From IMG/VR virus record IMGVR_UViG_3300047311_000725: a stretch of DNA of 64,000 nt. One strand, given 5' to 3'. The position numbers were made by a program, and so were the translations under genes. This stretch comes from a virus. Position 1 is the stretch's first letter. Each line of letters opens with the position of its first letter. The notes below the pieces were generated by a model. It was not told the DNA's origin, made no database searches, and worked only from the letters and a program-made list of their open reading frames with translations. This document shows, piece after piece, positions 5,154-41,565 of the stretch.

Positions 5154-5155
5154 AC

Positions 5156-16866: not shown

Positions 16867-16876
16867 TGTGAAATCC

Positions 16877-16887
16877 ATTATACCACG
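16877..16887 (-). promoter_or_regulatory. extended -10 promoter CGTGGTATAAT overlapping first ATG of DHH gene
   Basis: Plus-strand attataccacg; identical core to elements at 2801 and 47474. Confidence 0.45.
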
Positions 16888-25272: not shown

Positions 25273-25797
25273 TCAACGCGCTCGGTACTTTCGGTGAAGG
25301 TATCTAATTGCGCCAAAGAGCCGCGGGTTGCACCGCTTCATCTTGCGCTTCTGTTCGGGAGTGCCGCAGTAGTACGTCTCGAATCCGATCGCGATGTACT
25401 CGTCGACGTTCTTCCGGGCGTAGGTGTCGGGGAGGTAGCGGGCCTTCTTCTTCTTCTCGGTGATGATGTCGTCTCGTTCAGACAGACCTTCTTCATCGTC
25501 GATGTTGTGGGCCAGCTCGTGGATGAGGATGCGGGCGAGGATCTCTCGGGACTGGTTCGTGAAGCTGATGCGGATGAGACCGTTGAGGTGGTCTCCGTGG
25601 TCGGGCATCAGGGTGAAGTAGATCTCCTTGACCTTGTCGGCGTAGGAGAACGGGACGTTCAGCTCCTCCATCTCAGACATGAGCTGGGCGATGTCAGGCT
25701 GGCACCTTTCACTGAACCTGATGAGGGTGCGAGAAGCGTTCTTGAGAATGTAGTCCCCCTCGTCGGTGGGGCACCGGGCAGCGATCCAAGACTCCAT
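25273..25797 (-). CDS. putative zinc metallopeptidase (HExxH)
   Basis: ILIHELAHNID motif; 174 aa. Confidence 0.5.
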   Translation of the reverse strand: MESWIAARCPTDEGDYILKNASRTLIRFSERCQPDIAQLMSEMEELNVPFSYADKVKEIYFTLMPDHGDHLNGLIRISFTNQSREILARILIHELAHNIDDEEGLSERDDIITEKKKKARYLPDTYARKNVDEYIAIGFETYYCGTPEQKRKMKRCNPRLFGAIRYLHRKYRAR

Positions 25798-25819: not shown

Positions 25820-28800
25820 TTACTTCTGCTTCTTGAATGGGAACTTCTTCTTCGGATCGACCAGGCTGTAGGGAGAGGGAGTGACCTTCAGGGCCTTCAG
25901 CTCGGGGATGATCTCGTAACGACCGGTCCTGGATGCTACACGTACCCCCTTCCGTCCCGAGGTCACTTCGAACTGGGGGACGGGCGGATTGAGCTTGGAG
26001 AGACCGAACGGGTCCTCGTCTCCAAGAAGATAGAAGTCGTTGCCGAACTGCATGTACGGGGCGTTCTTGTACTTGTAGTGGGCGGCCACCAGCTGCTGCA
26101 CGTCCCCCGCCCCGACGTTCAGGTAGATGTAGCGGTTGCCCTTGCCTGCCGACTTCTTGTTGTCGATGAAGGCGTTGATCTCGTCCGGGGTCACGGCGTT
26201 CGGACTACGCTTCATGATGTCGGCGGGCTTCCCCTGCGACGGCATGGAGAGGACCTTGGGCACCGGAAGACCCTGCTCCTTGCGGCTCTTGGCCACGAAG
26301 GCGTGCAGTTCCTTCAGGAACTTCTGGGCGTCGGGGTTCGTCTCCAGGTCCTTGGCGATCCCGGCCGTGAAGCCGGTCTGCTCGCCCGATCCCTGCCACT
26401 TCCCGTCCACCAGCTTCATGCGGGCCGAGACGAGGTTGGCGCCGCCGGCCTCGGTGTACTTGGCCTCGATGTAGGCGCTCTTCCCGCCGATGGTCACCTC
26501 GACGTCCGCCTTCTTCGGATCGTTGCCACCGACGGCCTTGGCGTCGATGCCCTGGCTCTGGAGGGACTTGGCCACCAGGTGCTCGAACTGGTTGGAGGCG
26601 CGGTCAGACGTCTTGGCCTGAGTCTTCTCAAGGAGCCGCATGATCTCTTCCCCGATGGCCTTGGCCGTGTCGACACCCTTCAGCTTGTCGGACCAGAGCT
26701 CGAACTCTTCCGGCGCTTCCTGGTAGGCCGCGACGTCCTCGTCGGTGAACATGTTCTGCGGGCTGGACCAGCCGGAGCTTCCCGCCCTGAGACCTGCCTG
26801 AGTTCCGCCGGGGCCGCTTCCCGGGGTCATGGTGATGCCGATCTCGGAGATGATGGTCTCCATGATCTTCTCGAGCACGGGCGGTTCGCCGCCGTTGGTA
26901 CGGCCGCCCGGGTCAGAGAGCACGTACTCCCCGCCACGCTTCATGATGTTGTCGCCCTTGTAGTCGGCGAACATGATGTTGGCCTGCTTGAGCTCCGCCA
27001 TCATCTGGTCGATCTGGTACTTCTTCAGACCGCGCTCGATGTAGTCGATCTTCTGGTCGATCATCCGCTGGATCCGCTCGCGGTTCTTGGCGCCGGCAGA
27101 CACCAGGTCGCGAGAGAGCTCGTCACGGATCTTCTTCATGACCGTGTCGTAGTCCACGATGTGGGGCGCCCCGCCCGTGACTTCGGAGGAGCGGAGGTCA
27201 TCGACCAGGTCATCGACCTCGGTCTTCTCGGCCGGAGACAGGGGGTGTAGCTTCTCCCGGATGATTCCGTAGAGGGGCTTGTCGGGGTTTCGACGGTCGA
27301 TCATCCGGAAGACGTCATCGATCTTGACGACGTGCGGAAGGGTCTTTCCCTTGAGGGCGAGGCAGGACTTCGCCTCGTTGGGAGAGGTCGTCGCCTTGAA
27401 GACCTTGTTGTTGCCCATGTCGTAGGCCACGCCGACCTGTCCCGCTCCGAGGCGATGGAGCTGGTCGGCGTTGATGCCCTTGGCACGGAGCTTCTCCCCG
27501 TTGTTCTTGATGACGGCCATGATGGCGTTCTCGCCACCGAAGTCGGCGATGTCTTCCCGGAGCGGACCCTCGTTCTTGGCCAGCTCGTCCTTCAGATCCT
27601 TGTAGATGGACTCGAAGGTCGCCTGGTTCGAGGTGACATGCGGGTCGAGCATGCTCTTGACGGCGTTCCGGTCGTCCTTGGCCAGAGCCTGACGTAGACG
27701 GGTGCCGCTGATCCGGTCGGTGTCGTCGTCGTTCTTGACGCCCGGAAGCATCTTGACGACGGCCAGATCGGGATCGAAGTTGCTGTCTGCCGCCTTCCCC
27801 TGGGCCTTGTACTCCTTGGACCGGTCGATCTGCTGCTTCATCTGCTCGAAACGGTCGGGTCCGACCAGGATCTCGCAGGCCGTGTCGCCCTTCAGGGCGC
27901 TGCCCTTCCCGGCCACGTCGGAGAGGATGCCCGGGACGAAGCCGCTGTTCTTGCCGCCCGAGGTCGCCTTGTAGACCTCCAGCTTCCTCCAGACGTCCGG
28001 GAGGGACGCCTTCATGAGCTTGAGCCGGGTCTCGTAGGAGAACGGGTTCTTCTTGTCCGGCGTGTTGCCGGCCACCAGGACGATGGTCTTGGTGTGGGTA
28101 TTGGCGAGCTTCCGAATCACTTCGGCGTGACCCCGGTGGAACGGCTGGTAACGTCCTATGGTCACGCCCACCGTGTCAGCCTGGGCCTCCTCGATGTTTC
28201 GAGCGTACTTGTCGACCGTGCCGTCCTCGGTGTGATTCACGAGGCCGCCGTCTACGCCGACGTACTCCTGCTTGTCGTCCGTGTAGTCCGGCTTGCTCCG
28301 CTCTTCCAGGTCGTCGGCACGTCCCACCGGACCCTGGCCCTTGAGGCGCTGGGTACCGGAGAACTCCCGCATCAGGGTGTGGACGATCCGCTCGAGGACA
28401 GGGGGAGCCGCGCCCGGGCTCTGGCTGAGACCGAGGTCGATGACGACGTAGTCGTTGCCCCGCATCATCAGGTTCCCCTCGTGGTAGTCGAGGAACTCGA
28501 TACGCTGGCCCGCCAGCTCCTTGATGATCTCCGGAAGCTGGAACTCCTTCATCTGGGAGTCCATCAGCTTCTGGACGTCCTTGTCCTTGATGTGGAGCCG
28601 GACCTGGTCCATCACCTTGCCGTAGTCGCCCGAGAGGATGGCCTCGCCAGCCTTGCAGGCCTGCAGCAGGTCCGTCACCAGCTCGAACTCCTTCTTGTCG
28701 TAGGCCGACATCTGGGCGAGCTTTTCCTCGACGATGCCATAGAACTCCGACCCAGGGAGCTGGAAGACGTCGAAGATGTGGACCACGTGCTTGAGCTTCT

Positions 28801-31800
28801 TGTCCTTCAGATGGTTGGAGGACTTGGCTTCAAGGATGTCGTCCGTCACCTTCAGGACCCGACCTGCTCCGATGTCGAAGGCGATGCCGTGCGCCCCGTG
28901 TCCGAGCGGCTTGAGCGGTCCCTTCACGATCCCCTTCTTCTTGAGGAGAGGGAGCACGTCCCGGACCACGTCCATCATGGGACGGTCCTTCTGGGCCTTC
29001 TTACCGGCCTGAGCGGCCTTGAGGGCGGCCAGCCTGTTCGGCGGACCTTCGTCGAGGTACGGGACCTTGTTCTCCAGGACGGGCGGTTCCTTCCCGCCGG
29101 CGACCTTGGAGTAGCCGATGTCGATGAGAACGTAGACCCCGCCCTGGCGGACCATGATGTTGCCCGCGTGGTAGTCGTGGAACTTGATCCCCTTCGAGTT
29201 CAGCTCCTGCACCATCTCGTCGATATGCACCTTCTTCGTGATGATGTCCCACTGGACGTTCATCTTCTTGGCGTAGGCGATGGCGTACTTGTTGTCGATC
29301 TCGTCCGTCTTCCAGGTCGGGTACTTCTCGGCGATCTTCTTGAAAACGCCCTCCTGGCAGGCTTCCTTGGTCTTGTCCCAGTTGTAGCCCGAACGGTAGA
29401 TCGTCTCCTGAAGGTTGAAAGCGAGGATGGCGCGGTTCAGATCAGCCGCCTCTCCGCTGGCGTCCAGACCGCTGGGGTCCTTGCCCATGCCCGGGAACGG
29501 GGCGAGCTTCTCCTGGAGGATGCCGTAAACGGCGCCGACCAGTTCCTCGTCCTCACGGAAGCGGAAGACGTCCGAGAAGCGGGCGACGTGCTTCAGGTTG
29601 ACGTCCATCAGCTTGTAGGAAGCGACCGCCTCCTGCTCGTCGTTGGTGATCTTGAGGACCTTCCCTCCGACGTCGAACGCGACTCCACGTGTTCCCTTCC
29701 CGAGCGGGTGGGCCCCACGGACGTTGATCCCCCGCTTCGCCAGCTGGGGGATGTTCTTCTTGAGGATCTGCTGGGCCATCTCGGTCGTGACGCCGGTGGT
29801 GGCCTTGGGCGCGCCCTTGGTCTTGGTCTGGGCGACGCTGGTCTTGTCGAACCCCGAGGTCGGCTTCTGGCCGGTCTGCGGCTGGGTGGCCCCGTACGAA
29901 TCCACTCCGGGTGCTTCACGCATGACGGATTCCTCGGCCTCTTCCTCGCCGCCGCCCTGGAGCCTCTCCAGACGGTGCTGGCCGAGGAAGAGCTTCATGA
30001 TGGCTACCTTCTTGGTCAGGTCGCCCTTGAGCCCACCGATCGCCTCGGCGGCCTTCTGGAGCTCGTCCAGCGACTGGTGGGCCTGCTGGAAGTCCGTGTC
30101 CGTCCGCTGCATCACGAGCGGGTCCATCTTCCGGGTCTGCCCCTTGAGCTGGACGGTCGGCCCCTTCTTCTTCTCGGCGGCCCACTCGGCCTCGAGCTGC
30201 TTCATCTCGTTCTGAGCCTTGGTGATCTCGGCCTTGAAGGTCGCGACCGGGTCCTTTCCGCCGAAGGCCTTGTTCTTCTTCACCCACTGTCCGAGCAGGT
30301 AGTCGTTCTTCTTCTCGGGGGTGTCGGCTTCCTTCGGGTACTCTGTCTCGGAGTTCAGGGAAGAGAGCTGCCGGCCGAAGGCGGTGCTGGCCGCCTCAGG
30401 CTTCCCGATGACGTCGGTGGCCACCCGCTTCCTGAAGTCGGAGATGACGCCGTTCCGCCAGATGTTGTCGACCTTGGTCCCCTTGCCGATGAGACCGCGG
30501 TACTTCCAGTTGAACTGGTTGAGCTTCGTGAAGAGGTCCTTGTCGACGAGCTTGGTGAGCGCGCCGTTCTCCAGGTCACGGAAGACGATGCCTTCCACGT
30601 CCCCGCCTTCGGGACCGTAGGAGGACTTCTGCTTCCGGAGCTGTCCGACCAGCTTCTCCTTGACCGCCTTCTGGATCGCCGAGAAGCGCTCCATGGCCGC
30701 CTTGTACGGGCCCTTGCCCGCCGCCTTCAGCTTGTCCGGCTCGAGCTTCTTCAGCTCCTGGTAGATCTGTCCGAGGGAGGTGAACTCCTCCTTGACGTCC
30801 ACCATCACGTCTTCCGGGCTGATGACCCGCTTGTACTCGAACTTCCACGGGTCCTTGCCGTCCGTGAGCTGGCCGCCCGACTTCTTGATGAGGTCGTTGG
30901 CCACCTTCTTGGAGGCCTCGTCGGACAGGACCGCGTCGCCCTTGTGGACGCCGTGGATCATGATGACGTTCGGACCGTACTCGATGGAGTTCGGGATCTT
31001 GGTGTACAGGACCTCGGCCGTGAAGACGGTGTTCGGCGGGATGTTCTGTCCCACCGGCTTGGACTCGAGCGCCTTGTGGGCGTTCTTGAGAGCCGCGAAC
31101 ATCGGCTTGTCCGGCCACTCCTTCGAAGACTTCTTCGGAGTCCCGTTCTTGCTCTTGGTCCAGAGCTTTCCGTTCTCGGCACCGAACTCCATGCGGGCGG
31201 AGCCGTCCACCTTCTCGGAGACCTCGAGCCCGCCCTTGAGCGGCAGGTCCTTGTACTTCGCCAGGAACTGCAGGAACTCCTGGGGCTTCATGTCCTCGAG
31301 GTGAGAGATGCCGCCGCCCTCGTCGAGCTTGGCCGCCTTCAGCTGGCCCGGATCCGTCGACCACCAGATCTTGTCGATCCGGGTCTCGTGGGTGCCGGGG
31401 TTGAGCGCCTTGGCCGAACCCTTGGTCGCGGCGTCCGAACGCCCGCGGAGGATCGCCATGATGTTGCCCTTCCGTTCCGCAGTGGCCGCGGTGGTGGCAT
31501 AGACCATGGCCAGCTTCGGATTGGCGGACCAGTAGCCCTTCTTGTCGACCTTGCTGATCACCGCCGAGCCGTTCGGCTGGGACGGATTGCCGCCGAGCTT
31601 GGCGAGCTCCTGGGGAGTGAGACCACGGAGACCGCGGAAGACGACGCCCTCGGGCTCGTTCGCTTCACCGAGCTCCGACGGCTCGTCGTGCTTGGCTCCC
31701 TTGAGGAAGCCCTTCAGGTAGCCCTTGACCTTCTCCAGCTTCTTCGGATCCATGGTGGACTTGGCCTTGGCCCACACCTGCTCGAACGGCGCAGCCAGGT

Positions 31801-32725
31801 CCTTCACGGACCACGGCGTGCCGGTGCCCTTGGAGATGAGCTTGGCCACTTCCTCGGGATCACTGATGCTGGTGGCGTCCACACGGTCCGACTTGAACTC
31901 TTCCTCGCCCTTCTTGTTCTTGACCTTCCGACCGACCTTCTGGAAGACTCCCTTGGCCGGGCTGATGGACCAGAACTTGACCGAGCCGTCCGGCTGCGGT
32001 TCCTCGGTGGCGTACCGGAGGAGACCGAGGACGAGACCTGTGCGGGGAAGCGCCTTGTACTTAGACTCGCTCTCGCCAGGTCCATAATAGGAGAACTGGG
32101 TCCACGCCTCCGGACCGACCATCAGGTCGACCTGGGCGGAGAGCTTGGTGGGCTTGCCATCAGGGGTGTACTGCGGGAACTTGGAGTTGATCTCGCCCAG
32201 TCCCTTGGCGACCTTGTGCTCGATCCCCAGCTTCTTCAGGATGGCCGAGATCTCTTCGAGGGACAGTTCGGTGTCCAGGCCGAGGTCGATGTCCCCGCTG
32301 GACGCCTTCTTGCCGGTGGAACCCACGGGCTTCACGGACTTGTGCTTGACCTTGGAGAGGACCTGCTTCTTGTAGGCCTCGATCGTCGGTCCGACGTTCT
32401 CACGGGGGACACGGTCGGTCCCCATGGCGTTGCCGCCTTCGGTGAGATCGCTCTGGTCGGAGTAGGTGACGGTCGGCTCCTGTGCGGCGCCGGCATCGTC
32501 GGGGATGGGGGACTTGGCCAAGGGTGCCTCGCCTTCCTTCATGAAGGGGAACCGCTGCTCTTCGTCGTCCTCGAGACCGTCCGGCACCGGGTACCCGGGC
32601 TTGCCCGCACCACCGCCATGCCGGTTGTCGCCGGTCCCGCCGGCTGCACGCCCTGAGTAGTTTGGTTGAGACGCCCCGTAGATTGATCGGAGCGACTCTC
32701 GGATGATGTCGTCGAGCCGGGACAA
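25820..32725 (-). CDS. 2301-aa multidomain protein: ligase/capping-enzyme-like nucleotidyltransferase region + three tandem protein-kinase-like domains + HxGH (cytidylyltransferase-fold) nucleotidyltransferase domain
   Basis: KxDG motif SEKVDGSAR (~nt 31205-31225), later EGIVFR; three repeats each with Gly-loop/VxK (LGKGTRGVAFDVGGKVLK; LGHGAHGIAFDIGAGRVLK; LGAGQVGVAYDMGNNKVFK), catalytic D-x4-N (HDYHAGNIM; LDYHEGNLM; ADYKGDNIM) and DxG (DIG; DLG; DPG); TIGRYQPFHRGH HxGH motif (~nt 28130-28165). Confidence 0.85.
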   Translation of the reverse strand: MSRLDDIIRESLRSIYGASQPNYSGRAAGGTGDNRHGGGAGKPGYPVPDGLEDDEEQRFPFMKEGEAPLAKSPIPDDAGAAQEPTVTYSDQSDLTEGGNAMGTDRVPRENVGPTIEAYKKQVLSKVKHKSVKPVGSTGKKASSGDIDLGLDTELSLEEISAILKKLGIEHKVAKGLGEINSKFPQYTPDGKPTKLSAQVDLMVGPEAWTQFSYYGPGESESKYKALPRTGLVLGLLRYATEEPQPDGSVKFWSISPAKGVFQKVGRKVKNKKGEEEFKSDRVDATSISDPEEVAKLISKGTGTPWSVKDLAAPFEQVWAKAKSTMDPKKLEKVKGYLKGFLKGAKHDEPSELGEANEPEGVVFRGLRGLTPQELAKLGGNPSQPNGSAVISKVDKKGYWSANPKLAMVYATTAATAERKGNIMAILRGRSDAATKGSAKALNPGTHETRIDKIWWSTDPGQLKAAKLDEGGGISHLEDMKPQEFLQFLAKYKDLPLKGGLEVSEKVDGSARMEFGAENGKLWTKSKNGTPKKSSKEWPDKPMFAALKNAHKALESKPVGQNIPPNTVFTAEVLYTKIPNSIEYGPNVIMIHGVHKGDAVLSDEASKKVANDLIKKSGGQLTDGKDPWKFEYKRVISPEDVMVDVKEEFTSLGQIYQELKKLEPDKLKAAGKGPYKAAMERFSAIQKAVKEKLVGQLRKQKSSYGPEGGDVEGIVFRDLENGALTKLVDKDLFTKLNQFNWKYRGLIGKGTKVDNIWRNGVISDFRKRVATDVIGKPEAASTAFGRQLSSLNSETEYPKEADTPEKKNDYLLGQWVKKNKAFGGKDPVATFKAEITKAQNEMKQLEAEWAAEKKKGPTVQLKGQTRKMDPLVMQRTDTDFQQAHQSLDELQKAAEAIGGLKGDLTKKVAIMKLFLGQHRLERLQGGGEEEAEESVMREAPGVDSYGATQPQTGQKPTSGFDKTSVAQTKTKGAPKATTGVTTEMAQQILKKNIPQLAKRGINVRGAHPLGKGTRGVAFDVGGKVLKITNDEQEAVASYKLMDVNLKHVARFSDVFRFREDEELVGAVYGILQEKLAPFPGMGKDPSGLDASGEAADLNRAILAFNLQETIYRSGYNWDKTKEACQEGVFKKIAEKYPTWKTDEIDNKYAIAYAKKMNVQWDIITKKVHIDEMVQELNSKGIKFHDYHAGNIMVRQGGVYVLIDIGYSKVAGGKEPPVLENKVPYLDEGPPNRLAALKAAQAGKKAQKDRPMMDVVRDVLPLLKKKGIVKGPLKPLGHGAHGIAFDIGAGRVLKVTDDILEAKSSNHLKDKKLKHVVHIFDVFQLPGSEFYGIVEEKLAQMSAYDKKEFELVTDLLQACKAGEAILSGDYGKVMDQVRLHIKDKDVQKLMDSQMKEFQLPEIIKELAGQRIEFLDYHEGNLMMRGNDYVVIDLGLSQSPGAAPPVLERIVHTLMREFSGTQRLKGQGPVGRADDLEERSKPDYTDDKQEYVGVDGGLVNHTEDGTVDKYARNIEEAQADTVGVTIGRYQPFHRGHAEVIRKLANTHTKTIVLVAGNTPDKKNPFSYETRLKLMKASLPDVWRKLEVYKATSGGKNSGFVPGILSDVAGKGSALKGDTACEILVGPDRFEQMKQQIDRSKEYKAQGKAADSNFDPDLAVVKMLPGVKNDDDTDRISGTRLRQALAKDDRNAVKSMLDPHVTSNQATFESIYKDLKDELAKNEGPLREDIADFGGENAIMAVIKNNGEKLRAKGINADQLHRLGAGQVGVAYDMGNNKVFKATTSPNEAKSCLALKGKTLPHVVKIDDVFRMIDRRNPDKPLYGIIREKLHPLSPAEKTEVDDLVDDLRSSEVTGGAPHIVDYDTVMKKIRDELSRDLVSAGAKNRERIQRMIDQKIDYIERGLKKYQIDQMMAELKQANIMFADYKGDNIMKRGGEYVLSDPGGRTNGGEPPVLEKIMETIISEIGITMTPGSGPGGTQAGLRAGSSGWSSPQNMFTDEDVAAYQEAPEEFELWSDKLKGVDTAKAIGEEIMRLLEKTQAKTSDRASNQFEHLVAKSLQSQGIDAKAVGGNDPKKADVEVTIGGKSAYIEAKYTEAGGANLVSARMKLVDGKWQGSGEQTGFTAGIAKDLETNPDAQKFLKELHAFVAKSRKEQGLPVPKVLSMPSQGKPADIMKRSPNAVTPDEINAFIDNKKSAGKGNRYIYLNVGAGDVQQLVAAHYKYKNAPYMQFGNDFYLLGDEDPFGLSKLNPPVPQFEVTSGRKGVRVASRTGRYEIIPELKALKVTPSPYSLVDPKKKFPFKKQK

Positions 32726-34686: not shown

Positions 34687-35286
34687 CTAATCGAGCTTTT
34701 CCTGACGTGCCGACCAGTAGTCCGCCGTGTGGAGCAGGAACGCCAGTTCCGGTTCTCGCCCCCTGTAGGGCTTGTTCTCGTCTACGTACTGGCCATCGTT
34801 CAGACGGATTGCCAAATATTCGTCACTGGTTACCTTGATTTCGTGGTCCTGGAGGATGTACAGGCCACGTTCGGAGGTGGGCATCCACGGGCAGGCCTTG
34901 TTGATCTCGTAGAGACGGCCCCGGTTCCGCTGCCACGCGTCCTGGTTCGGGAGGTAAGATTCCTTTTCCCCGTCCCCGACCTTCCCGAGGTCGTGGAAGA
35001 GACCGACGAAGGCGAGCTGGTGGTCGGGGTATCTTCCCTTGCAGAGGGCGTCCGCGACCTTCTTCAGGTTCCGGACCACGTTGAGAGAGTGTTGGGCGAG
35101 ACCGCCCGGGTAGCAGGAGTGGTACTCCTCGTGGCTGGAGGCCGGAGCCGTGAAGTAGGTCAGTCCGACCGGCCCGTCCATCATCTTCAGGACCTGGTCT
35201 CGCCGGTCGTCCGGCATCAGCTCGATCAGCTTCTCTACCCGCTCGTGGTTCTTGAGGAGTTCCTCTTCAGTCGGTCGCGTCGCCAT
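34687..35286 (-). CDS. HD-domain phosphohydrolase
   Basis: H..(HSLNV), LFHDLGK, LLHTADY residues fit H...HD...H...D metal-binding pattern; 199 aa. Confidence 0.7.
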   Translation of the reverse strand: MATRPTEEELLKNHERVEKLIELMPDDRRDQVLKMMDGPVGLTYFTAPASSHEEYHSCYPGGLAQHSLNVVRNLKKVADALCKGRYPDHQLAFVGLFHDLGKVGDGEKESYLPNQDAWQRNRGRLYEINKACPWMPTSERGLYILQDHEIKVTSDEYLAIRLNDGQYVDENKPYRGREPELAFLLHTADYWSARQEKLD

Positions 35287-36706
35287 ACGTCCTGCCTCTC
35301 TTCAGGTTCGCCCTGAACGTGAATCCTTCTACTGGCGCCTCCATGAGAGACTTCACGACCAGCATCTCCTTCCCCTCTTCGGGGTGCATGTCGATGTCCA
35401 GCTCGTCGTGGACCGTGAAGATGACCTTGCTCCGCTTCTCGCGGAGGTAGGCCACCACCCGGACCAACGCCTGCTCGAAGACCCAGGAGCTGAACCCCTG
35501 GGCGTAGAGCCCGATGATCTTGCCGTCGTGGTCGTCCCCGGCCACCGGGATCTTCCGACCGCTCGGCAGCATGACGAACCCGTCCACCCGGGCCTGCACG
35601 GCCAGCTTCCGGCGGAAGTCCGCGATGGGACGGAGCTTCCGGTCCATCACCTGCTTCACCTGCTGGACCTTCATCATGCTCAGTCTGGTCTTCGAAGCGA
35701 GGGTCTCGTCCGACCCTCCATAGATGTACACGTAGGAGAAGTACTTGATGATGTCTCGACGGAGCTTCTCGGGCGGACCCGAGAGGATCATCTCGCAGGT
35801 CTTCACGTGGAAGTCGTCCACCCCGTCGTAGATCTTCCGGAAGTCCTTGTCGTCGAGCGAGGCCACGATGCTCCGGTAGTCGATGGCGTTGTAGTCGAAG
35901 GCCACGATCTCCCCGCCCTCGTGCCGGCTGACGATCCCCTTGCGGACCGTGCCGTGCGGGATGCCCATGCAGTTGAACCCCTCTTCGACCTTGATGCGGC
36001 CGGTCTTCCCGCCTGCCGGGTTGAAGAGGGTACGGACGTAACCGTCCGACTGCGCCATCTGAGAGATGAACTTGTGCTCGTGCTTCGGGAGGTCTTCCCG
36101 GAGCTTCTCCTTCGCGTAGCCCACGTCGACCTTGATGCCGACGACCTCGATCTGCCGGAGAGCCAGGGCGAACGGCCAGGTGTCCCTCTCATACTCTCCG
36201 AGGTCGCAGGACTCACCCCGGAGGGCCTTCTCAAACAACGCCATAGTTGCTATGGCCCGGACCTTGAGGAGTGACTGGACAGCCCTGGCGGGCATCAGCT
36301 TGAGAAGGGAGTGACGGGTGACGTCGATCCCCGCCGTCTTGCAGGCCTTGACGTGGGCGGTGTAGTTCTGTTCCCGGTCCAGGACGTTCCGGGCCATGTC
36401 CGGGTCGAGGTAGTCACGGGCCAGGTCGAAGAGCTTCCGCTCCCCGCCATAGAGGATCTTCACGTCATAGACCGTCTTGCCCGAGGTGCAGATGTCCTCG
36501 AGGTTCCGGTGCTCGAAGCAGACGACGTGGCTGGCTTCCCGGGCGACCTCGTTCACGAAGCCGACTGCCGGATCCAACACGAACTCGAACACCGTGCCGG
36601 CCAACATGGCCACGGCGCGCCCTCCGGCCTGATCCTTGAAAGGAACCAGGACGACCGGCTTCCCGTGAACCGCGTCGAGAACAGAGCTCAGGTCGAGTTC
36701 CTCCAT
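35267..36706 (-). CDS. family A (Pol I-like) DNA polymerase domain protein without recognisable 3'-5' exonuclease
   Basis: Motif A DYNAIDYR, motif B RRDIIKYFSYVYIYGG, motif C TVHDELDID; 480 aa starting MEELDLSSV (ATG 36704-36706). Confidence 0.6.
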   Translation of the reverse strand: MEELDLSSVLDAVHGKPVVLVPFKDQAGGRAVAMLAGTVFEFVLDPAVGFVNEVAREASHVVCFEHRNLEDICTSGKTVYDVKILYGGERKLFDLARDYLDPDMARNVLDREQNYTAHVKACKTAGIDVTRHSLLKLMPARAVQSLLKVRAIATMALFEKALRGESCDLGEYERDTWPFALALRQIEVVGIKVDVGYAKEKLREDLPKHEHKFISQMAQSDGYVRTLFNPAGGKTGRIKVEEGFNCMGIPHGTVRKGIVSRHEGGEIVAFDYNAIDYRSIVASLDDKDFRKIYDGVDDFHVKTCEMILSGPPEKLRRDIIKYFSYVYIYGGSDETLASKTRLSMMKVQQVKQVMDRKLRPIADFRRKLAVQARVDGFVMLPSGRKIPVAGDDHDGKIIGLYAQGFSSWVFEQALVRVVAYLREKRSKVIFTVHDELDIDMHPEEGKEMLVVKSLMEAPVEGFTFRANLKRGRTYGDATD

Positions 36707-36711
36707 TGCAT

Positions 36712-36722
36712 ATAATATCATG
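36712..36722 (-). promoter_or_regulatory. promoter-like CATGATATTAT element 5 nt upstream of family-A polymerase ATG
   Basis: Variant of TGnTATAAT family. Confidence 0.3.
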
Positions 36723-36747
36723 TGCAGGAGGAAAAGGGAAGGAAAAC

Positions 36748-38607
36748 TTACACTGGATTTGTGTTGCGATGCTGGGTGTCCTTGAGAACACCCTGGGTGT
36801 TGAGCGGATCCGTGCCGGTGGCGCGGACAGAGACGGTCGTGATGAAGTTGGAGGCGTCGATGGTGTCTTCCCGTTCCATCATGTGGAACGGTCCGTCCCA
36901 ACGCTTGACTCCGAACTCGAGCCAGATCCGGAGGAACGTGTCCCACACGAAGTTCCCGATCATGGTGATCCGGCCCGTGATGTTCGACGAGAGGAAGAGC
37001 TTACGGGGATCGATGCCGTCGGCAGCCTGGGCGGCGTGGGTCACGCCGACGGTCTGGTAGCGGTTGGGATCGACAGCACGTTCGATGGCGATGTGTTGCA
37101 TGTTCGCATCTTGTTCCATGCTGAAGTTGGCTTCCTGGATGTAGGAGAGCCCGTTCTTGAAGCTGACCAACGGGATGTTGTACTTCTTGAGCTTCTTGTG
37201 GATCTCGTCGACCTTGACGGACGGGTCCAGCCGGTCATCGAAGTCGATGCTGGCCGACAGCTGCTTCATGTCGTAGATGTACAGGCTGTAGACCAGCTTT
37301 CCCTTGTCCCGGGTGGTGGCCGTCTTCACCATGAGTTCCGGCGGGCTCTGGCGCTTCCTGAGGATCCTGGCCTCCTCCGTCGCCTGGAGCTTCTTGTTGA
37401 CCTGCCCGTTCTCGGTGGCCGCCTTCTCCGCCTGCTGCTTCTCGGCGTCCGTCAGGCCAGCTCCGGCCCAGTTCTCCTGGCGCTGGATGTAGTTGAGCAG
37501 GTTCTTGAAGACGGCCATGAGGTTCAGCTGCTGGCCGCTGGCCCGCTTGAACCCGAGGAGGTCCTTGAACCAGGACTCGGGGACCAGGAAGTCCCCGATG
37601 CTCTTGCCCTGCATCACGCCGCCGCAGTCCTTCCGAGCCGCTCCGATGTCGTGGTTGAACATCCCGAGGAAGAGCTGCACGTCGTCGTAGCCGACGGCCT
37701 TCACGGCGCTCGTCATCAGCGGGGCGAAGACCTTGTTCAGGATCTCGCTGAACGGGACCGCACGTCCGCCCTTCCCGCCGGGGGTTCCCTGTCCTCCACC
37801 GGACGGATTGTACAGGTCGTGGATGGTGTTCTGGAGCTTCTTGATGATCGCCTGGCCGTCGGGAGACCTGGTCTCCTTGATGGTGTTCTTCGTACCGACG
37901 GTGTAGGAAGTGCTGTTCTCCTGTCCCTGCGGGGCGGGGGAAGAGAAGTAGTCGAGGTCCGACAGGTGGACCTGGGCCAGGATGTTGTCTCCCGAGTCGA
38001 TCGCCTGGATGACAAAGGAAAGAGAACCGTCCGGGTTGATGCTGAAGTTCCAGGTGGTGGTCTGGAAGAGGACGTCGTGCTGGCCCTCGACGAAGTTGTT
38101 CTTGTCGACGATCCCGTTGCCGTTGAGCAGGTCGTTGCTGGACTGCCCGGTCCAGCCGTAGCGCAGGATGAAGTACGTCCCGGGACGGACGAGCGCCCAC
38201 CACTCGTCAAAGTCTTCGTTGGACTCGTCGAAGACCCGTTCGGGCTGGAAGACGGTGAACGTGAGCGTGATGAAGCGGTGGAGGATCGCACCCGTCTTCG
38301 TCAGGGCCCGCTTGACCACCACCCTCTCCAGCGCCACCGGGGCGCGCTCGGAGAACCTGTCCACCGAGGACCCGAAGGTCGGGGGCTGGATCAGAAGGTT
38401 GGTGATCGACTTCGAAGGATCGGGAGCGTTCTTGTTGTTCGGGTCCGGATGCACGGGCTTCCCGGCGTTGGTGACCTGCCAGATCTTGATGTACGGGACG
38501 GCCAACGCCTTGTCGGTGGCGGTGATCGTCTCGAGCAGGGCGAACGAGTCCTGGTTCCGGTCTCTCCAGGGAAGGTCCGTCTCCTGCATCTGCTTGAAAT
38601 CTGCCAC
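36748..38607 (-). CDS. hypothetical virion/baseplate-region protein (619 aa)
   Basis: Large ORF downstream of tape measure module. Confidence 0.5.
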   Translation of the reverse strand: MADFKQMQETDLPWRDRNQDSFALLETITATDKALAVPYIKIWQVTNAGKPVHPDPNNKNAPDPSKSITNLLIQPPTFGSSVDRFSERAPVALERVVVKRALTKTGAILHRFITLTFTVFQPERVFDESNEDFDEWWALVRPGTYFILRYGWTGQSSNDLLNGNGIVDKNNFVEGQHDVLFQTTTWNFSINPDGSLSFVIQAIDSGDNILAQVHLSDLDYFSSPAPQGQENSTSYTVGTKNTIKETRSPDGQAIIKKLQNTIHDLYNPSGGGQGTPGGKGGRAVPFSEILNKVFAPLMTSAVKAVGYDDVQLFLGMFNHDIGAARKDCGGVMQGKSIGDFLVPESWFKDLLGFKRASGQQLNLMAVFKNLLNYIQRQENWAGAGLTDAEKQQAEKAATENGQVNKKLQATEEARILRKRQSPPELMVKTATTRDKGKLVYSLYIYDMKQLSASIDFDDRLDPSVKVDEIHKKLKKYNIPLVSFKNGLSYIQEANFSMEQDANMQHIAIERAVDPNRYQTVGVTHAAQAADGIDPRKLFLSSNITGRITMIGNFVWDTFLRIWLEFGVKRWDGPFHMMEREDTIDASNFITTVSVRATGTDPLNTQGVLKDTQHRNTNPV

Positions 38608-38934: not shown

Positions 38935-41565
38935 TTACTTCTTGGCGTAGGTGTTCAGCTTGTTTCCGGTGCCGCCGGAGTAGCTGTCGATGGAGTGCTC
39001 GTCCATGTCGGGAGCGTTCTGAGAACTGCCGCCCGATGACTGGGAGCTCTGGTTGCTCTGCGGTGGGCTCCACTTGCCGGTGCCCGGGTCGATCCGCCCG
39101 ATTCCTCCGAACTGGCCATCCACACCGATGCCGAGCGGCTTCTCGTGGAGGACCAGGAAAGACATGGAGACCTTGAAGCCCATGGGGACCTTGTTCCCCT
39201 TCTGGAGCTCCCACACCACGTCGTTGTAGTCGAACGACAGGCTCTCGATGATCCCGGGCAGACCGAAGCCGCCGGTCGTCTTCAGGAGGTCACCCACCCG
39301 GAGGCGGACGATCGGTCCCGACTTGAAGAGCATGTCCTTGTCGTAGCTCGGGTAGCACATGGAGACCAGCCAGTTCTTCTTCTGGTAGATCAGTTCCAGG
39401 TCCTCGGGAGCGAAGGCGTGCACGCTGAAGCCGAGGTTGATCGTGCGGCCGGTCGCCATGTAGGTAGCGATCGCGTCCGTACGTCCGTAGAAGTTCTGCT
39501 TGTTCCACTCCGGGGTGATCTCTTCGGTCAGGCTCGAGATGAACGGCCGGAAGTAGACCGTCCTGACTTCGTTCGAGCCGTTCATGGGCCTGAGGTCCAT
39601 GAAGGAGAGCGGGACGTAGGCGTCGTCGTCGTCCACCTTCGTGGACGGGTCGTCACGCCGGATCACCGTCTTGATGAAGCCGTTCGTCTCCCCGTCGAAC
39701 CCCGACGGGACGATGCCCGAGGAGTAGTAGGCACGGGCCAGCTTGTCTCCCGTCCCCGGCAGGGTCTCGTCGGTGGCGATCCTGGTGTTCGTCGGAGGGT
39801 TGAACTTCGCGCCCTTCGGTGTCAGGGAGACCATGTTCGGAGAGTAGAGGCCGGCGATGTTCGACTTCTGGATGGGAAGCGTGACGACCTGGGTCGCGTC
39901 GGTGACTGGAGCATCGAGGTCGCTGTCCTTCAGCATCCGGATGGAGGCCGGGTCGTTTCCCTTCCCGGTGGCGAAGTCCACCATGCCGCCGATGCTGAAG
40001 AAGGTTCCCGCGTTGTCGGCGTTGTACGGATTGTCCGCCGTGTACGGGTTCGCCGAGGTCTGCTCCCCGAAGGACGCCAGCTGTTCGATCTTGGCGATGG
40101 CATCTCCCTGGGTGGTCCCGGCGGCGACCAGGTCCTCGTGGGTGACGAAGTCGTCGATACCGATCGGAGCCCATCCGGCTGAACCGGGAGGCGGAGCGAT
40201 GGTAAGAGGATTCCAGATCCTTCCGTTGACGTTCATCGCCATCAGGGTGAACTGGAGGGCGGAGAACTGGCTGATCCCGAAGGGTCCGACCTGGATGGCC
40301 AACCGCTTCAGGTTCTTGGCGTAGAGCAACGGGTCAAAGGCGTGGCTACCCGGCGCCCCTCCGCCGTTCTCTCCGAACGGGATGAGAAGCCGCAGGGACT
40401 CCTTGACGGCGTCGTCCACCAGGTTCAGACGTCCGAGGACGTCCTTCGAGGCTGGGACCTGTCCACCCGGAGCGTACTCCTGCGGGGTGACGAAGTTCGG
40501 AGGCGCAGGCAGCACGGCGTTCGGTTGCGGACTGAAGTCCGGCGGTGCCGGAAGCTTCGCGTTCGGCTGCGAAGGAGGAGCCGGCATCGGAGGCAGCACT
40601 GCGGGAGACCCCGGAGGCGGAGCCGGCATCGGAGGAAGCGACGCGTTCACGTTCGGGACGAACGCCGGCGGAGGCGGAAGGGTAGCGTTCACGCCCGGCG
40701 GAGGCGCGGGCATGGGCGGCAACACCGCGTTCACTCCCGGAGGGGGAGCTGGCATCGGCGGGAGAACGGCGTTCACTCCCGGCGGAGGCGCGGGCATGGG
40801 CGGCAGGATCGCGTTCGGCGCGGGCGGGGGAGCCGGCATCGGAGGTAGCACGGCATTCGGCTGCGGAGGAGGAGCCGGCATCGGTGGGAGGACCGACGGC
40901 TGTCCCAGTGTCACGGCCGGAGGAGCCGGCAGGGTGGCCGGCAGGGACGGGACGACCGGGACATCCTGGAACTTGGCCGGCTGGGTCTCGACCGTCTGGA
41001 CCTCCGGCGGAGGCGGGAGGACAGACGGGCCGTTGAGCGTCACGACCGGAGGAGCCGGAAGCTCGGCTGGCGCAACCGGAGTAAAGACCGGAGGATCGGG
41101 CAGCACCGCGTTCGCCTTCGGCGTGAACTCCGGAGGAGGCGGGAGGACGGCCGGGGTCGACAGCTGCGGCGGCGGCATGTCCGGCAACGTGGCCGGAGCC
41201 TGCGGGGCGAAGCCCGTGTCTACCGGTTCGGCCGGCGGCTTGGAAGTCTGGATGGAGACCGGCTGCGGTTCGAACGGCGGAGCGGGAGTCCCGGGAGTCT
41301 GGGACGGCTGCTGGGCCGCTACCTTGGTCTCCTGTGGGGAGAAGGTCACCACCGGTTCTGCCGGAGGGGCGCTCGGGTTCACCGCCTGTGACGGTTGGGG
41401 CGCAGCTTCCTTGGTGGTAGAGATAGGTGGGGCCGGCTGCTCAGGAAGGTCGGAGGGCTTCGAGAGCACGGGCGCGGGCTGGAGCTCTTCTTCCGGCTCG
41501 TGTGGTGGCTGCAGCTGGACGTTGTCCTCTACCTGCAGCTTGTCCTTGTCTTCCTTGTTTGCCAT
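38935..41565 (-). CDS. proline-rich repeat-containing tail/baseplate-region protein (876 aa)
   Basis: N-terminal ~350 aa extremely Pro-rich with ~10 tandem 14-aa repeats (AVLPPMPAPPPGVN); globular C-terminal half. Confidence 0.55.
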   Translation of the reverse strand: MANKEDKDKLQVEDNVQLQPPHEPEEELQPAPVLSKPSDLPEQPAPPISTTKEAAPQPSQAVNPSAPPAEPVVTFSPQETKVAAQQPSQTPGTPAPPFEPQPVSIQTSKPPAEPVDTGFAPQAPATLPDMPPPQLSTPAVLPPPPEFTPKANAVLPDPPVFTPVAPAELPAPPVVTLNGPSVLPPPPEVQTVETQPAKFQDVPVVPSLPATLPAPPAVTLGQPSVLPPMPAPPPQPNAVLPPMPAPPPAPNAILPPMPAPPPGVNAVLPPMPAPPPGVNAVLPPMPAPPPGVNATLPPPPAFVPNVNASLPPMPAPPPGSPAVLPPMPAPPSQPNAKLPAPPDFSPQPNAVLPAPPNFVTPQEYAPGGQVPASKDVLGRLNLVDDAVKESLRLLIPFGENGGGAPGSHAFDPLLYAKNLKRLAIQVGPFGISQFSALQFTLMAMNVNGRIWNPLTIAPPPGSAGWAPIGIDDFVTHEDLVAAGTTQGDAIAKIEQLASFGEQTSANPYTADNPYNADNAGTFFSIGGMVDFATGKGNDPASIRMLKDSDLDAPVTDATQVVTLPIQKSNIAGLYSPNMVSLTPKGAKFNPPTNTRIATDETLPGTGDKLARAYYSSGIVPSGFDGETNGFIKTVIRRDDPSTKVDDDDAYVPLSFMDLRPMNGSNEVRTVYFRPFISSLTEEITPEWNKQNFYGRTDAIATYMATGRTINLGFSVHAFAPEDLELIYQKKNWLVSMCYPSYDKDMLFKSGPIVRLRVGDLLKTTGGFGLPGIIESLSFDYNDVVWELQKGNKVPMGFKVSMSFLVLHEKPLGIGVDGQFGGIGRIDPGTGKWSPPQSNQSSQSSGGSSQNAPDMDEHSIDSYSGGTGNKLNTYAKK
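40530..40905 (-). repeat. ~42-nt imperfect tandem repeat (approx. 9 copies) encoding PAPPP repeats
   Basis: Repeating ggcggaggcgcgggcatgggcggca-like units visible on plus strand. Confidence 0.7.

Follow-up and report, generated by a model that had tools for sequence, protein, structure and literature searches.

Paralogous minimal kinase-like modules flank an NMNAT-like domain in a giant viral protein with an RNA-ligase-type domain

In NadR, RibF, HldE, PAPS synthase and CoA synthase, a kinase is fused to a HIGH-superfamily nucleotidyltransferase, and the two domains perform successive steps on one metabolite. Each of these enzymes has a single kinase of P-loop, ribokinase or other fold, never a protein-kinase-like one, unlike the giant viral protein described here. 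Fungal and plant Trl1, and T4 Pnkp together with Rnl1, resemble it in joining an Rnl-type ligase domain to one or more kinase domains. The Trl1 and T4 kinases, however, are P-loop polynucleotide kinases, none of which was found in the giant protein, and Trl1 has no counterpart of its HIGH, Pol-β-like and nuclease domains. In two homologues of the giant protein (P0002 and P0012), a 2H phosphoesterase is joined to these domains as well.

Protein-kinase-like enzymes of phages form another point of comparison. T7 gp0.7 (T7K) is phage-encoded and divergent, with DPV in place of DFG, comparable with the DPG of our third kinase module (K3). In contrast to the protein studied here, its one kinase domain of ~240 aa precedes a shut-off/DNA-binding domain, and it has no ligase, HIGH domain or tandem copies; modules K1 and K2 have DIG and DLG. 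The C-lobe-less kinases of polyvalent proteins (Iyer et al. 2017, PMC5512222) are likewise parts of giant phage proteins with many domains; the C-subdomain is missing from them, but the ATP-binding and phosphotransfer residues are kept. Gln is frequent in their last N-lobe strand, as in GIVQEKL of the protein studied here, and they accompany 2H, InPase, lysozyme/transglycosylase, Pol-β NTase and zincin peptidase domains. Compared by its published description, that family differs in that an insert separates its conserved His from the Asp and in that it occurs mainly in Verrucomicrobia-Chlamydiae and Bacteroidetes prophages. Its 2H domains are said never to associate with RNA ligases, and the words "adenylyltransferase" and "cytidylyltransferase" are both absent from the text of PMC5512222. 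The archaeal tRNA U47 2'-kinase ArkI and the RIO and Bud32 minimal kinases are also among the closest known systems.

Layout of the giant protein

The window, the whole 64,000-nt stretch of viral DNA that was analysed, contains a giant ORF with the domain order NT-X-LIG-LIGC-K1-K2-HIGH-K3-NUC (Table 1), which lies in the replication module and has a GC3 of 0.90. Public data hold a near-identical protein and 14 full-length or partial homologues, and no BLAST-detectable relatives of the kinase modules were found among deposited phage genomes. This arrangement of three minimal kinases around an NMNAT-like enzyme, joined to an RNA ligase, is uncharacterised and widespread. The giant protein probably aids the phage in the repair or rewiring of the infected cell.

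Table 1 Positions and sequence features of the giant ORF, its domains and the adjoining peptidase gene
Feature	Residues	Coordinates	Strand	Sequence features
Giant ORF	2,301 aa	25820..32725	-	TTG start; N-terminus agrees with homologues P0002, P0003 and P0012
NT, Pol-β-type nucleotidyltransferase-like domain	96-365	31631..32440	-	motif GSTGKKASSGDIDLGLD and third Asp; motif-level assignment
X, insert	366-472	31310..31630	-	common to P0006 only
LIG, RNA-ligase-type nucleotidyltransferase domain	473-720	30566..31309	-	motif I EKVDGS (Lys505), EGIVFRD, KLVDK
LIGC, helical region C-terminal to LIG	721-960	29846..30565	-	accompanies LIG in all homologues; modelled part helical
K1, kinase module	985-1222	29060..29773	-	G-loop GKGTRG, Lys1025, Glu1032, Asp1184, Asn1189, Asp1202 (DIG), tail PPVLE
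K2, kinase module	1251-1450	28376..28975	-	G-loop GHGAHG, Lys1292, Glu1299, Asp1413, Asn1418, Asp1430 (DLG), tail PPVLE
HIGH, HIGH-superfamily nucleotidyltransferase, NMNAT-like	1510-1725	27551..28198	-	GRYQPFHRGH, NPFSYETR, ISGTRLR
K3, kinase module, post-HIGH clade	1736-1957	26855..27520	-	G-loop GAGQVG, Lys1777, Glu1784, Asp1921 (DYK), Asn1926, Asp1938 (DPG), tail PPVLE
NUC, probable PD-(D/E)xK (restriction-endonuclease-like) domain	about 2040-2301	25823..26608	-	C-terminal
Zincin-type metallopeptidase gene, adjoining the giant ORF downstream	174 aa	25273..25797	-	HExxH motif (HELAH)

The fold predicted for LIG supports its assignment as an Rnl-type RNA ligase. In a Foldseek search of the PDB with the AF2 model (pLDDT 81), the top matches were nearly all RNA ligases (Rnl3, 2vug, E 2e-5; T4 Rnl2; the Trl1 ligase domain; T4 Rnl1). 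The ligase motifs are invariant in alignment A3. Pfam RNA_lig_T4_1 gave no more than a sub-threshold match, in P0004, and hhalign of the domain against T4 Rnl1 gave no match. In the NT domain, G40, S41, G43, K45, S48, G49, D50, D52 and D105 are invariant (alignment A4), and neither Pfam, RlaP (PF10127) included, nor the PDB profiles yielded a match. The same NT family adjoins distant HIGH genes in L037, L040, L051 and L066. In other viral contigs, distant HIGH genes either have an NT-family neighbour or are fused to a domain of the LIG family.

The C-terminal domain shows E...E-x-K invariants (alignment A5), weak matches to Pfam Mrr_cat (E 0.054 here, 0.0014 in P0004) and a weak PDB match to a Holliday junction resolvase (E 0.034). 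Region X matched no family in Pfam. The neighbouring zincin gene scores 24.9 bits with Pfam ATLF (E 2e-5), below the cut-off of 27.4, and a gene at the equivalent position in L002 has a recorded ATLF match. The product of the zincin gene may process the giant protein proteolytically. Some members of the family have SLT, 2H or InPase domains or a zincin peptidase, the latter adjacent or internal.

Kinase modules and the K(n)-HIGH-K cassette

The original prediction described three kinase-like segments with internal similarity, and pairwise BLASTP bears this out: K1 and K2 share 34% identity over 239 columns (E 1e-29), K1 and K3 33% over 243 columns (E 3e-24), and K2 and K3 35% over 226 columns (E 5e-35), far beyond the level of short motifs or chance. 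The peptides quoted as evidence all occur in the translated ORF, at aa 1003, 1272 and 1756 (nt 29719-29639, 28912-28838 and 27460-27383). The modules were placed correctly and drawn too short: the HMM envelopes that we use as boundaries (modules of ~200-240 aa) are slightly wider and take in an N-terminal helix of ~18 aa and the C-terminal PPVLE tail. At the DNA level, in-register similarity of 60-78% over 30-48 nt occurs at conserved motifs only.

Each module starts with an N-terminal helix and a canonical N-lobe (glycine loop, β3 Lys, αC Glu). Past the hinge, a variable insert of helices, longest in K1, leads to the catalytic loop (D-x-[HK]-x-x-N), which is followed by DxG, the metal-binding motif. 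The module ends in a short PPxLE tail ~20 residues further on, with no activation segment or helices αF to αI. This truncation is genuine, since 28 complete stand-alone proteins of 217-263 aa end 15-25 aa past the DxG. The 17-residue spacing between the catalytic Asp and the DxG Asp is that of canonical kinases, the D-x-H-x-G-N loop is similar to the APH/ABC1/Bud32 type, and K2 is modelled by AF2 with a pLDDT of 95.9 and a pTM of 0.90. K42, D163, N168 and D180 are invariant across a 37-module alignment, and these residues, together with the glycine loop and the αC Glu, are invariant or almost so in 321 modules, 88 of them post-HIGH. Judged by these residues, K1, K2 and K3 each retain everything required for ATP-Mg binding and γ-phosphate transfer, and the three segments are paralogues of a predicted minimal protein-kinase-like phosphotransferase domain.

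An HxGH domain was correctly placed between copies 2 and 3, with the motif GRYQPFHRGH at aa 1524. It matches Pfam CTP_transf_like (PF01467; aa 1522-1679, E 2.8e-8, 34.5 bits against a cut-off of 21) and TIGR00125 (36.7 bits against 27.7); its best PDB profiles are NadM and archaeal NMNAT (6e-12 and 2e-11), followed by PPAT. The view that this domain interrupts the kinase module does not hold, since comparison of the homologues identifies a HIGH domain flanked by kinases, K(n)-HIGH-K, as a conserved core architecture. It is the prevailing order among the best 150 of 3,568 profile matches, a set in which many shorter architectures may be contig fragments (P0091 certainly is one). In the family, the HIGH domain is accompanied by two to five flanking kinase-like modules, and one complete stand-alone gene encodes K-K-HIGH-K, with the nuclease as a separate gene nearby. 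The core can do without the kinases, as P0015 combines NT, ligase, HIGH and nuclease domains but lacks any kinase. The K-HIGH-K order could stem from shared descent of one phage clade, not from metabolic coupling.

The best cross-protein match is another post-HIGH module for 69 of 71 post-HIGH modules and a pre-HIGH module for 65 of the 66 modules directly before HIGH, so that the two positions hold separate, positionally orthologous clades. Between the window and P0002, same-position identity is 70% for K1, 75% for K2 and 65% for K3, against ~34% among the copies in the window. Since same-position modules are closer than copies within one protein and best matches follow position, the copies predate the family, and their duplication is ancient. 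The proposed intragenic duplication thus stands as paralogy but is not supported as an event within this gene.

Candidate substrates of the kinase modules

We consider it highly probable that the modules are active, ancient, cassette-forming minimal kinases. RNA or nucleotides, not proteins, are our tentative choice of substrate, with a chance just short of even, and this choice is favoured over host proteins. The overall proposal, ancient minimal kinases phosphorylating RNA or nucleotide-type hydroxyls within the cassette, is evenly poised. The three copies would be active kinases with differing substrates, chosen by the variable helical insert, and would phosphorylate RNA-end, RNA 2'-OH or nucleotide-type hydroxyls. 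By analogy with Trl1 (ligase-kinase-CPDase) and with NadR, RibF and HldE, they may provide the phosphorylation step for the Rnl-type ligase and the HIGH and Pol-β nucleotidyltransferases, and the outcome may be phage RNA repair or restoration of the nucleotide pool against host defences. ArkI, encoded beside a tRNA nucleotidyltransferase, is an ePK-like minimal kinase able to act on tRNA. Against RNA or nucleotide substrates stands the finding that structure and profile searches match the modules best with protein kinases rather than with kinases acting on RNA or small molecules. With a net charge of ~zero, the modules offer no obvious surface for binding RNA. Stand-alone copies in unrelated contexts, such as a T4-like structural module, also count against this explanation.

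Alternatively, the modules could be protein kinases for host takeover or anti-defence, like T7K or the C-lobe-less polyvalent-protein kinases: the giant protein, possibly injected or early, would be cut by the zincin, freeing several kinases for different host or phage proteins. We regard this as possible, at clearly less than an even chance. The modules show weak similarity to T7K (PHROG 15752, E 4e-4; hhalign probability 84%, N-lobe only, 64 columns), to whose DPV the DPG of K3 is akin, and in its DYK, K3 resembles Ser/Thr kinases with their D-x-K-x-x-N loop. Evolution is faster in the kinase modules than in the ligase and HIGH domains, as expected of effectors tracking host targets, and there are several such fast-evolving paralogues and stand-alone copies in other phages. 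Protein targets have been proposed for the C-subdomain-less kinases of polyvalent proteins (PMC5512222), hallmarks of which (SLT, 2H, InPase and zincin) occur in the family. However, the module lacks the elements with which ePKs hold peptides (activation segment, P+1 loop, αF to αG), and Pfam Pkinase does not match it. Every recognised partner domain acts on nucleic acids or nucleotides, and no further clear protein-modifying domain was found in the family. Packaged polyvalent proteins typically lie beside portal and head genes, whereas this gene is in the replication module.

A narrower nucleotide reading, which we consider unlikely, takes K-HIGH-K as an NAD(P) salvage line countering NAD+-depleting defences, in which one kinase would convert nicotinamide riboside to NMN, the HIGH domain would turn NMN into NAD+, and the resulting product would be the substrate of a further kinase. 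The HIGH domain is indeed nearest to NadM and archaeal NMNAT, with the GRxQPFHxGH and SGTxxR motifs in common, NadR-type enzymes offer a precedent for NMNAT-kinase fusions, and NAD+ salvage by phages has been documented. Nevertheless, the NMNAT equivalog models score ~31 bits against cut-offs of 127-449, none of the window genes tested proved to be NadV/Nampt, and two to five kinases exceed the needs of the pathway. The association of HIGH with the ligase and NT families where kinases are absent also points to RNA rather than cofactor chemistry.

Status of the third copy

Least probable by far is that K3, left by intragenic duplication, serves only as a scaffold or regulator and is a drifted pseudokinase, the status that the original prediction had thought possible from its motif changes and at which its slightly lower conservation between P0001 and P0002 (64%, against 70-75% for K1 and K2) might hint, since its glycine loop, Lys1777, Glu1784, Asp1921, Asn1926 and Asp1938 are all kept. 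The changes themselves are real: DPG replaces DLG/DIG and Lys replaces His, but this Lys, which the original prediction put before the catalytic Asp, follows it at a distance of two residues (DYH to DYK). Each of these variants is seen repeatedly in modules that are otherwise intact (DxK in 16 of 88 post-HIGH modules, DPG in 14 modules), stand-alone proteins included, and the highly active kinase of T7 carries DPV where K3 has DPG. Of the 88 post-HIGH modules, all have the β3 Lys, 86 the catalytic Asp, 85 the Asn and 86 the DxG Asp. By its sequence, K3 is therefore not a pseudokinase. Positional orthology shows long-term retention, and orthologue identity about equal to that of K1 and K2 indicates that K3 is under selection.

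Three related kinase-like modules in the giant protein

Since GC3 of the giant ORF is 0.90, we regard it as a genuine gene. The original prediction of three related kinase-like segments in its product holds. The three peptides named there lie at residues 1003, 1272 and 1756, in agreement with the nucleotide positions given for them, and pairwise BLASTP gave 34% identity over 239 columns for K1 and K2 (E 1e-29), 33% over 243 columns for K1 and K3 (E 3e-24), and 35% over 226 columns for K2 and K3 (E 5e-35). With these E-values, the triplication is real and well above motif-level or chance similarity. Whole-protein self-BLAST returned the identity match alone, and the paralogy is seen in the pairwise comparison of segments. 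The module limits, taken from an HMM built from K1, K2 and K3, are a little broader than those predicted; a conserved helix opens each module and a PPVLE tail closes it. The HxGH motif lies between K2 and K3, as predicted, within a Pfam cytidylyltransferase-like domain (HIGH).

Features of the giant gene, its product and the surrounding window
Feature	Window (nt)	Strand	Giant protein (aa)	Remarks
Giant ORF	25820-32725	-		2,301 codons
NT region			96-365	
Region X	31310-31630	-	366-472	insert of ~107 aa
Ligase domain			473-720	
K1 module			985-1222	HMM limits
K2 module			1251-1450	HMM limits
Cytidylyltransferase-like domain			1522-1679	Pfam, E 2.8e-8
HxGH motif			1524	
K3 module			1736-1957	HMM limits
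Zincin-type metallopeptidase gene	25273-25797	-		174 aa, HELAH; directly downstream of the giant gene
Putative DNA glycosylation/modification cluster	4020-5261, 11922-12986, 13003-13758, 14943-15896, 15889-16878	-		
SPFH/Band-7 protein	5390-7219	-		609 aa, E 2e-29
PolIII-alpha-like polymerase	7857-11384	-		PHROG 405, E 1e-241
PolA-type polymerase	35267-36946	-		
ORF preceding the PolA gene	36748-38607			619 aa, no match
ORF beside the tape-measure gene	38935-41565	-		876 aa, no PHROG match

The AlphaFold2 model of K2, built from an alignment of 37 modules, has a pLDDT of 95.9 and a pTM of 0.90. An N-terminal helix is followed by a five-stranded N-lobe with αC, five helices from the hinge to the catalytic loop, two short strands and the DxG motif, and the chain ends 20 residues further on. 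The bilobal elements of the protein-kinase-like superfamily (five-stranded N-lobe with αC, the hinge, and both the catalytic and the metal-binding loops) are thus found in the model. K1, K2 and K3 all carry the Gly-rich loop, β3 Lys, αC Glu, catalytic Asp and Asn, and DxG Asp. These residues are invariant (in K2 numbering Gly27, Lys42, Asp163, Asn168, Asp180 and Gly182) or at least 90% conserved (αC Glu49) in the 37-module alignment. They are just as conserved in a larger set of 321 modules, drawn from the family and from the best 150 database matches. Here the β3 Lys, whose conservation in homologues the original prediction named as a check together with that of the catalytic Asp, was found in 320; the catalytic Asp, Asn and DxG Asp are missing only at alignment gaps or, rarely, substituted. 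K1, K2 and K3 diverge most in the helical insert, which separates the hinge from the catalytic loop.

Foldseek matched the K2 model to ERK2, p38, CDK and aminoglycoside phosphotransferases (E ~2e-5), and the module profile matched YopO and MAPKAPK2 among PDB sequences (E 4e-4). None of the Pfam, NCBIfam or PHROG models proved to be dedicated to the module. Matches to Pfam APH and ABC1 stay below threshold in the window protein but exceed the cut-off in the homologue P0012; for APH (PF01636, cut-off 23.2 bits) the scores are 21.9 bits in the window protein and 37.2 bits in P0012, the latter without any single passing stretch. The loop D-x-H-x-G-N is like that of APH, a family defined by the Brenner motif HxDxxxxN, and the C-terminal helical substrate-binding subdomain of APH is absent. 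NCBIfam gave a weak Bud32 match, and PHROGs gave weak 'kinase' and T7 gp0.7-type matches (PHROG 15752, E 4e-4; none of the stretches passed by itself); DP(G), among the three copies, occurs in K3 alone. Alignment with T7 gp0.7 by hhalign reached a probability of 84% over 64 columns, all in the N-lobe. Pfam Pkinase (PF00069) was not reported for the window protein and scored 14 bits in P0012, against a cut-off of 31.7.

Subdomains VIII-XI of Hanks-type kinases, namely the activation segment with APE and αF to αI, are absent from the module. Since 28 complete stand-alone homologues (217-263 aa, with a Met start) also terminate 15-25 residues past DxG, this truncation is genuine. The module is therefore a member of the protein-kinase-like superfamily that lacks ePK subdomains VIII-XI and could be assigned to none of the curated families tested. 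Many of the stand-alone homologues retain the PxVLE tail. We also considered the PPxLE tail as a protease cleavage site between modules, and rejected this idea because complete stand-alone proteins carry the same tail at their C-terminus.

The K(n)-HIGH-K cassette and its partner domains

The relatives of the window protein are metagenomic giant proteins of 1,300-2,400 aa with zero to four module copies each. The module family is large yet uncharacterised: when 1.84 billion representative proteins were searched with the profile, there were 3,568 matches at E ≤ 1e-3, counted as clusters at 50% identity, 1,434 at E ≤ 1e-10 and 283 at E ≤ 1e-30. These range from stand-alone proteins to arrays of up to five modules, and the members looked up are metagenomic sequences. 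A 5,535-aa amphioxus protein (P0099) with 28 'stretches' was rejected as a low-complexity false positive. The homologue P0013 is deposited in NCBI as an archaeal protein (partial) of a Candidatus Thorarchaeota MAG; given the phage context of all other family members, it probably comes from a viral contig binned into an archaeal MAG.

Domain scanning of the best 150 of the 3,568 matches revealed a single dominant order, K(n)-HIGH-K, with or without the upstream ligase: LIG-LIGC-K-K-HIGH-K, K-K-HIGH-K and K-HIGH-K. The view of the HxGH domain as an interruption of the kinase array thus does not stand. Some of the short entries are contig fragments; one of them, P0091, lies at a contig end, and the two-domain HIGH-K protein was dropped as a minimal unit. 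The 849-aa protein P0050 (K-K-HIGH-K) is a complete gene within its own contig, where the type-B nuclease is a separate gene two genes downstream.

The best cross-protein match of a post-HIGH module is also post-HIGH in 69 of 71 cases, and that of a module directly before HIGH is pre-HIGH in 65 of 66. Since best matches follow position, the paralogues split before the family radiated and have held their positions since. Similarity among K1, K2 and K3 at the DNA level is faint, in register and restricted to the conserved motifs (60-78% over 30-48 nt); a recent duplication was rejected on this evidence together with the positional orthology. The duplication is ancient, and the HIGH domain is part of the unit.

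Among 80 IMG/VR loci with relatives of this HIGH domain, collected with the HIGH alignment, kinase modules are confined to the six close loci, and the 74 more distant HIGH genes have none. Searches of deposited phages with the giant gene gave no DNA match by megablast and six weak protein matches by tblastn, all to the NT, ligase or HIGH domains. Neither K2 (tblastn, E ≤ 1) nor one stand-alone homologue matched any deposited phage, and relatives of the module were undetected by BLAST among 50,697 deposited phage genomes. L001 encodes a stand-alone 240-aa homologue (7931-8653) within a T4-like phage structural cluster (gp23, gp13, sheath), where GIY-YIG endonuclease genes flank it.

The HIGH domain carries the motifs GRYQPFHRGH and ISGTRLR and exceeds the superfamily cut-offs (PF01467, 34.5 bits against 21; TIGR00125, 36.7 against 27.7). 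Its nearest relatives are NadM and archaeal NMN adenylyltransferases (E 6e-12 and 2e-11 for PDB profiles, with alignments spanning just the first ~57 residues), with which it shares GRxQPFHxGH and SGTxxR. Its scores of 24-33 bits are far below the NMNAT/NadM equivalog cut-offs of 127-449.

In the ligase domain, the motifs EKVDGS, EGIVFRD and KLVDK are invariant; motif I (KxDG), motifs IV and V, and the covalent nucleotidyltransferase fold of the Rnl enzymes are all found. Nearly all of the top ~26 Foldseek matches of its AlphaFold2 model (pLDDT 81) are RNA ligases (E 2e-5 to 1e-3), including Rnl3, T4 Rnl2, the Trl1 ligase domain, T4 Rnl1 and Naegleria Rnl, with low TM-scores of 0.3-0.43. Pfam RNA_lig_T4_1 reached E 7.6e-4 in the homologue P0004, under the cut-off. 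The ligase profile had no hhalign match to T4 Rnl1, and the RNA-ligase assignment therefore rests on the motifs and the fold search; a PDB profile search with this domain gave no match either.

The NT region has the classical Pol-beta nucleotidyltransferase signature at motif level, and the C-terminus is, also at motif level, a probable PD-(D/E)xK nuclease. Single-sequence and profile searches of PDB sequences with the ligase, NT and nuclease domains yielded no usable match. RlaP (PF10127) was rejected for the NT domain, as it did not match. Region X, between NT and the ligase, matched no family and is shared with the homologue P0006 alone; it carries the motifs FRGLRG and YWSANP and may have an R-S-E pattern of the ADP-ribosyltransferase kind.

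Some homologues have further, optional domains: P0002 and P0012 a 2H phosphoesterase, P0004 and P0014 an SLT transglycosylase, and P0054 an InPase. Distant HIGH genes without kinases directly adjoin genes of the same NT family in four contigs (L037, L040, L051, L066) and are fused to the same ligase family in two others (L081, L088). The association of NT, ligase and HIGH thus recurs independently in other viral contigs. In the homologue P0015, too, NT, ligase, HIGH and nuclease occur together without any kinase. The stable core thus consists of these four domains, with the kinases as a frequent addition around HIGH.

Possible substrates of the modules and the state of K3

The analysis establishes the fold, catalytic residues that are intact, an ancient paralogy, a conserved cassette, and partner domains of the nucleic-acid and nucleotide kind. 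We infer that each module would bind ATP-Mg and transfer the γ-phosphate; the divergent helical insert probably selects the substrate. We favor hydroxyl groups of RNA or nucleotides as acceptors, a reading to which we give slightly less than an even chance. All recognised partner domains act on RNA ends or nucleotides, and an Rnl-type ligase requires 5'-phosphate ends while the giant protein has no P-loop polynucleotide kinase. Fusions of a kinase with a HIGH nucleotidyltransferase, such as NadR, RibF and HldE, usually catalyse successive steps, which also argues for this reading. The archaeal tRNA U47 2'-kinase ArkI, whose gene adjoins one for a tRNA nucleotidyltransferase, proves that tRNA can be a substrate of a minimal ePK-like enzyme (2022).

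A protein substrate is somewhat improbable but a serious alternative. The nearest structures are protein kinases, and there is a weak link to the T7 protein kinase gp0.7. The modules also show faster evolution than the ligase and HIGH domains, occur alone in unrelated contexts and have no net positive charge, each of which speaks against the RNA or nucleotide reading; the net charge, computed as a proxy for RNA binding, has a median of 0 and was uninformative. However, the modules lack every peptide-binding element of protein kinases, which favors the RNA or nucleotide reading.

In its fullest form, this reading takes the modules as a new phage-specific, minimal family with the protein-kinase fold that phosphorylates hydroxyls of nucleic acids or nucleotides, e.g., the 5'-OH or 2'-OH of RNA. 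They would take the place of the P-loop polynucleotide kinase within a 'heal, activate and seal' machine for RNA repair and counter-defence, contained in a single polypeptide and composed of the ligase, Pol-beta NTase, HIGH NTase, kinases and nuclease and possibly cut apart by the adjacent zincin peptidase. We consider this complete scheme unlikely.

That K3 has drifted into a pseudokinase, as originally considered possible, is highly improbable, since it keeps the β3 Lys, catalytic Asp and DxG Asp, at least one of which a pseudokinase loses. K3 has the glycine loop GAGQVG, Lys1777 (VFK), Glu1784, Asp1921 and Asn1926 (DYKGDN) and Asp1938 (DPG). Post-HIGH modules as a group retain the β3 Lys (88/88), catalytic Asp (86/88), Asn (85/88) and DxG Asp (86/88). 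The two deviations read as drift are recurring variants of intact modules: Lys at Asp+2 is found in 16 of the 88 post-HIGH modules, and DPG in 14 modules, stand-alone proteins among them. Ser/Thr kinases also have Lys at Asp+2 (HRDLKxxN). In the hyperactive T7 kinase, DPV replaces DFG and has been proposed to lock the active conformation (PMC13645617). Identities between orthologues show that K1, K2 and K3 are under similar constraint: 70%, 75% and 64% between the window protein and P0002 (HIGH 78%, ligase 85%), and 45%, 48% and 45% between P0005 and P0007 (HIGH 60%, ligase 73%). Judged by its sequence, K3 is not a pseudokinase.

Relation to polyvalent proteins and genomic setting

The nearest published concept is that of polyvalent proteins with kinases lacking the C-lobe (Iyer et al. 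2017, PMC5512222). Like these, the giant protein combines many disparate enzymes in one polypeptide, with three kinase modules, HIGH and a fold-supported ligase in 2,301 aa in addition to the motif-level Pol-beta-like NT and nuclease; a zincin peptidase gene is adjacent, and SLT, 2H and InPase occur in relatives. Unlike in polyvalent kinases, the catalytic Asp and DxG Asp of the modules are not separated by an insert, and the ligase-HIGH core was not found in Iyer et al. 2017. Moreover, the giant gene lies in a replication module, whereas genes of polyvalent proteins, which are packaged in the virion and injected along with the DNA, are typically linked to portal, MuF or head genes. T7 gp0.7, ArkI/RIO/Bud32, APH, NadR-type enzymes and Trl1 are partial analogues, and the module could be assigned to none of these families. 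We regard it as a minimal branch of the kinase-like superfamily that is new, set in a likewise new architecture of the polyvalent type.

The module is about the smallest catalytic unit of the kinase fold seen, and since it ends right past the metal-binding loop, it offers a way to study why kinases need a C-lobe. It is constantly paired with an NMNAT-like domain and frequently fused to RNA ligase, Pol-beta-like NTase, nuclease, 2H, InPase or transglycosylase, which suggests that large environmental myoviruses use it in a weapon or repair kit of several enzymes. Phage kinases disarm bacterial defences broadly, as reported for T7 gp0.7 (2026); whether an RNA/nucleotide kinase or a new class of phage protein kinase, the module would be a new player in phage-host conflict.

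The window phage is myovirus-like, with tail sheath, major head protein and tape-measure genes, and encodes a PolIII-alpha-like polymerase, PolA, DnaB, UvsX, RNR and thymidylate synthase. The giant gene lies among PolA, SSB-like, UvsX, DnaB and RNR genes, in the same order in contigs L002 and L003; this order is kept in contigs of 96-196 kb. The zincin-type peptidase gene, which adjoins the giant gene in L002 as well, has a sub-threshold ATLF match in the window and ATLF on record for L002. The peptidase may process the giant protein.

Several further genes were observed. L003 and L004 (122-196 kb), which carry P0054, have a tubulin-family (PF00091) gene at 5762-6958, a few genes upstream of the giant gene. 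Of the two polymerase genes in the window, the PolA gene may be split, since its ORF matches the family profile in the C-terminal part alone and the preceding ORF is without a match. The ORF beside the tape-measure gene has unusually high GC (0.68 in 40-42 kb; GC2 0.50) and may encode a Gly/Ala-rich tail or fibre protein. The putative DNA glycosylation/modification cluster comprises an RGP/GT75-like glycosyltransferase-mutase, a 'GT4-conflict' glycosyltransferase, an AAA_28 P-loop kinase, a thymidylate-synthase homologue and a DHH phosphoesterase, which together suggest that the phage DNA contains a pyrimidine that is hypermodified and glycosylated. The SPFH/Band-7 protein is unusual for the surroundings of a phage replication region.
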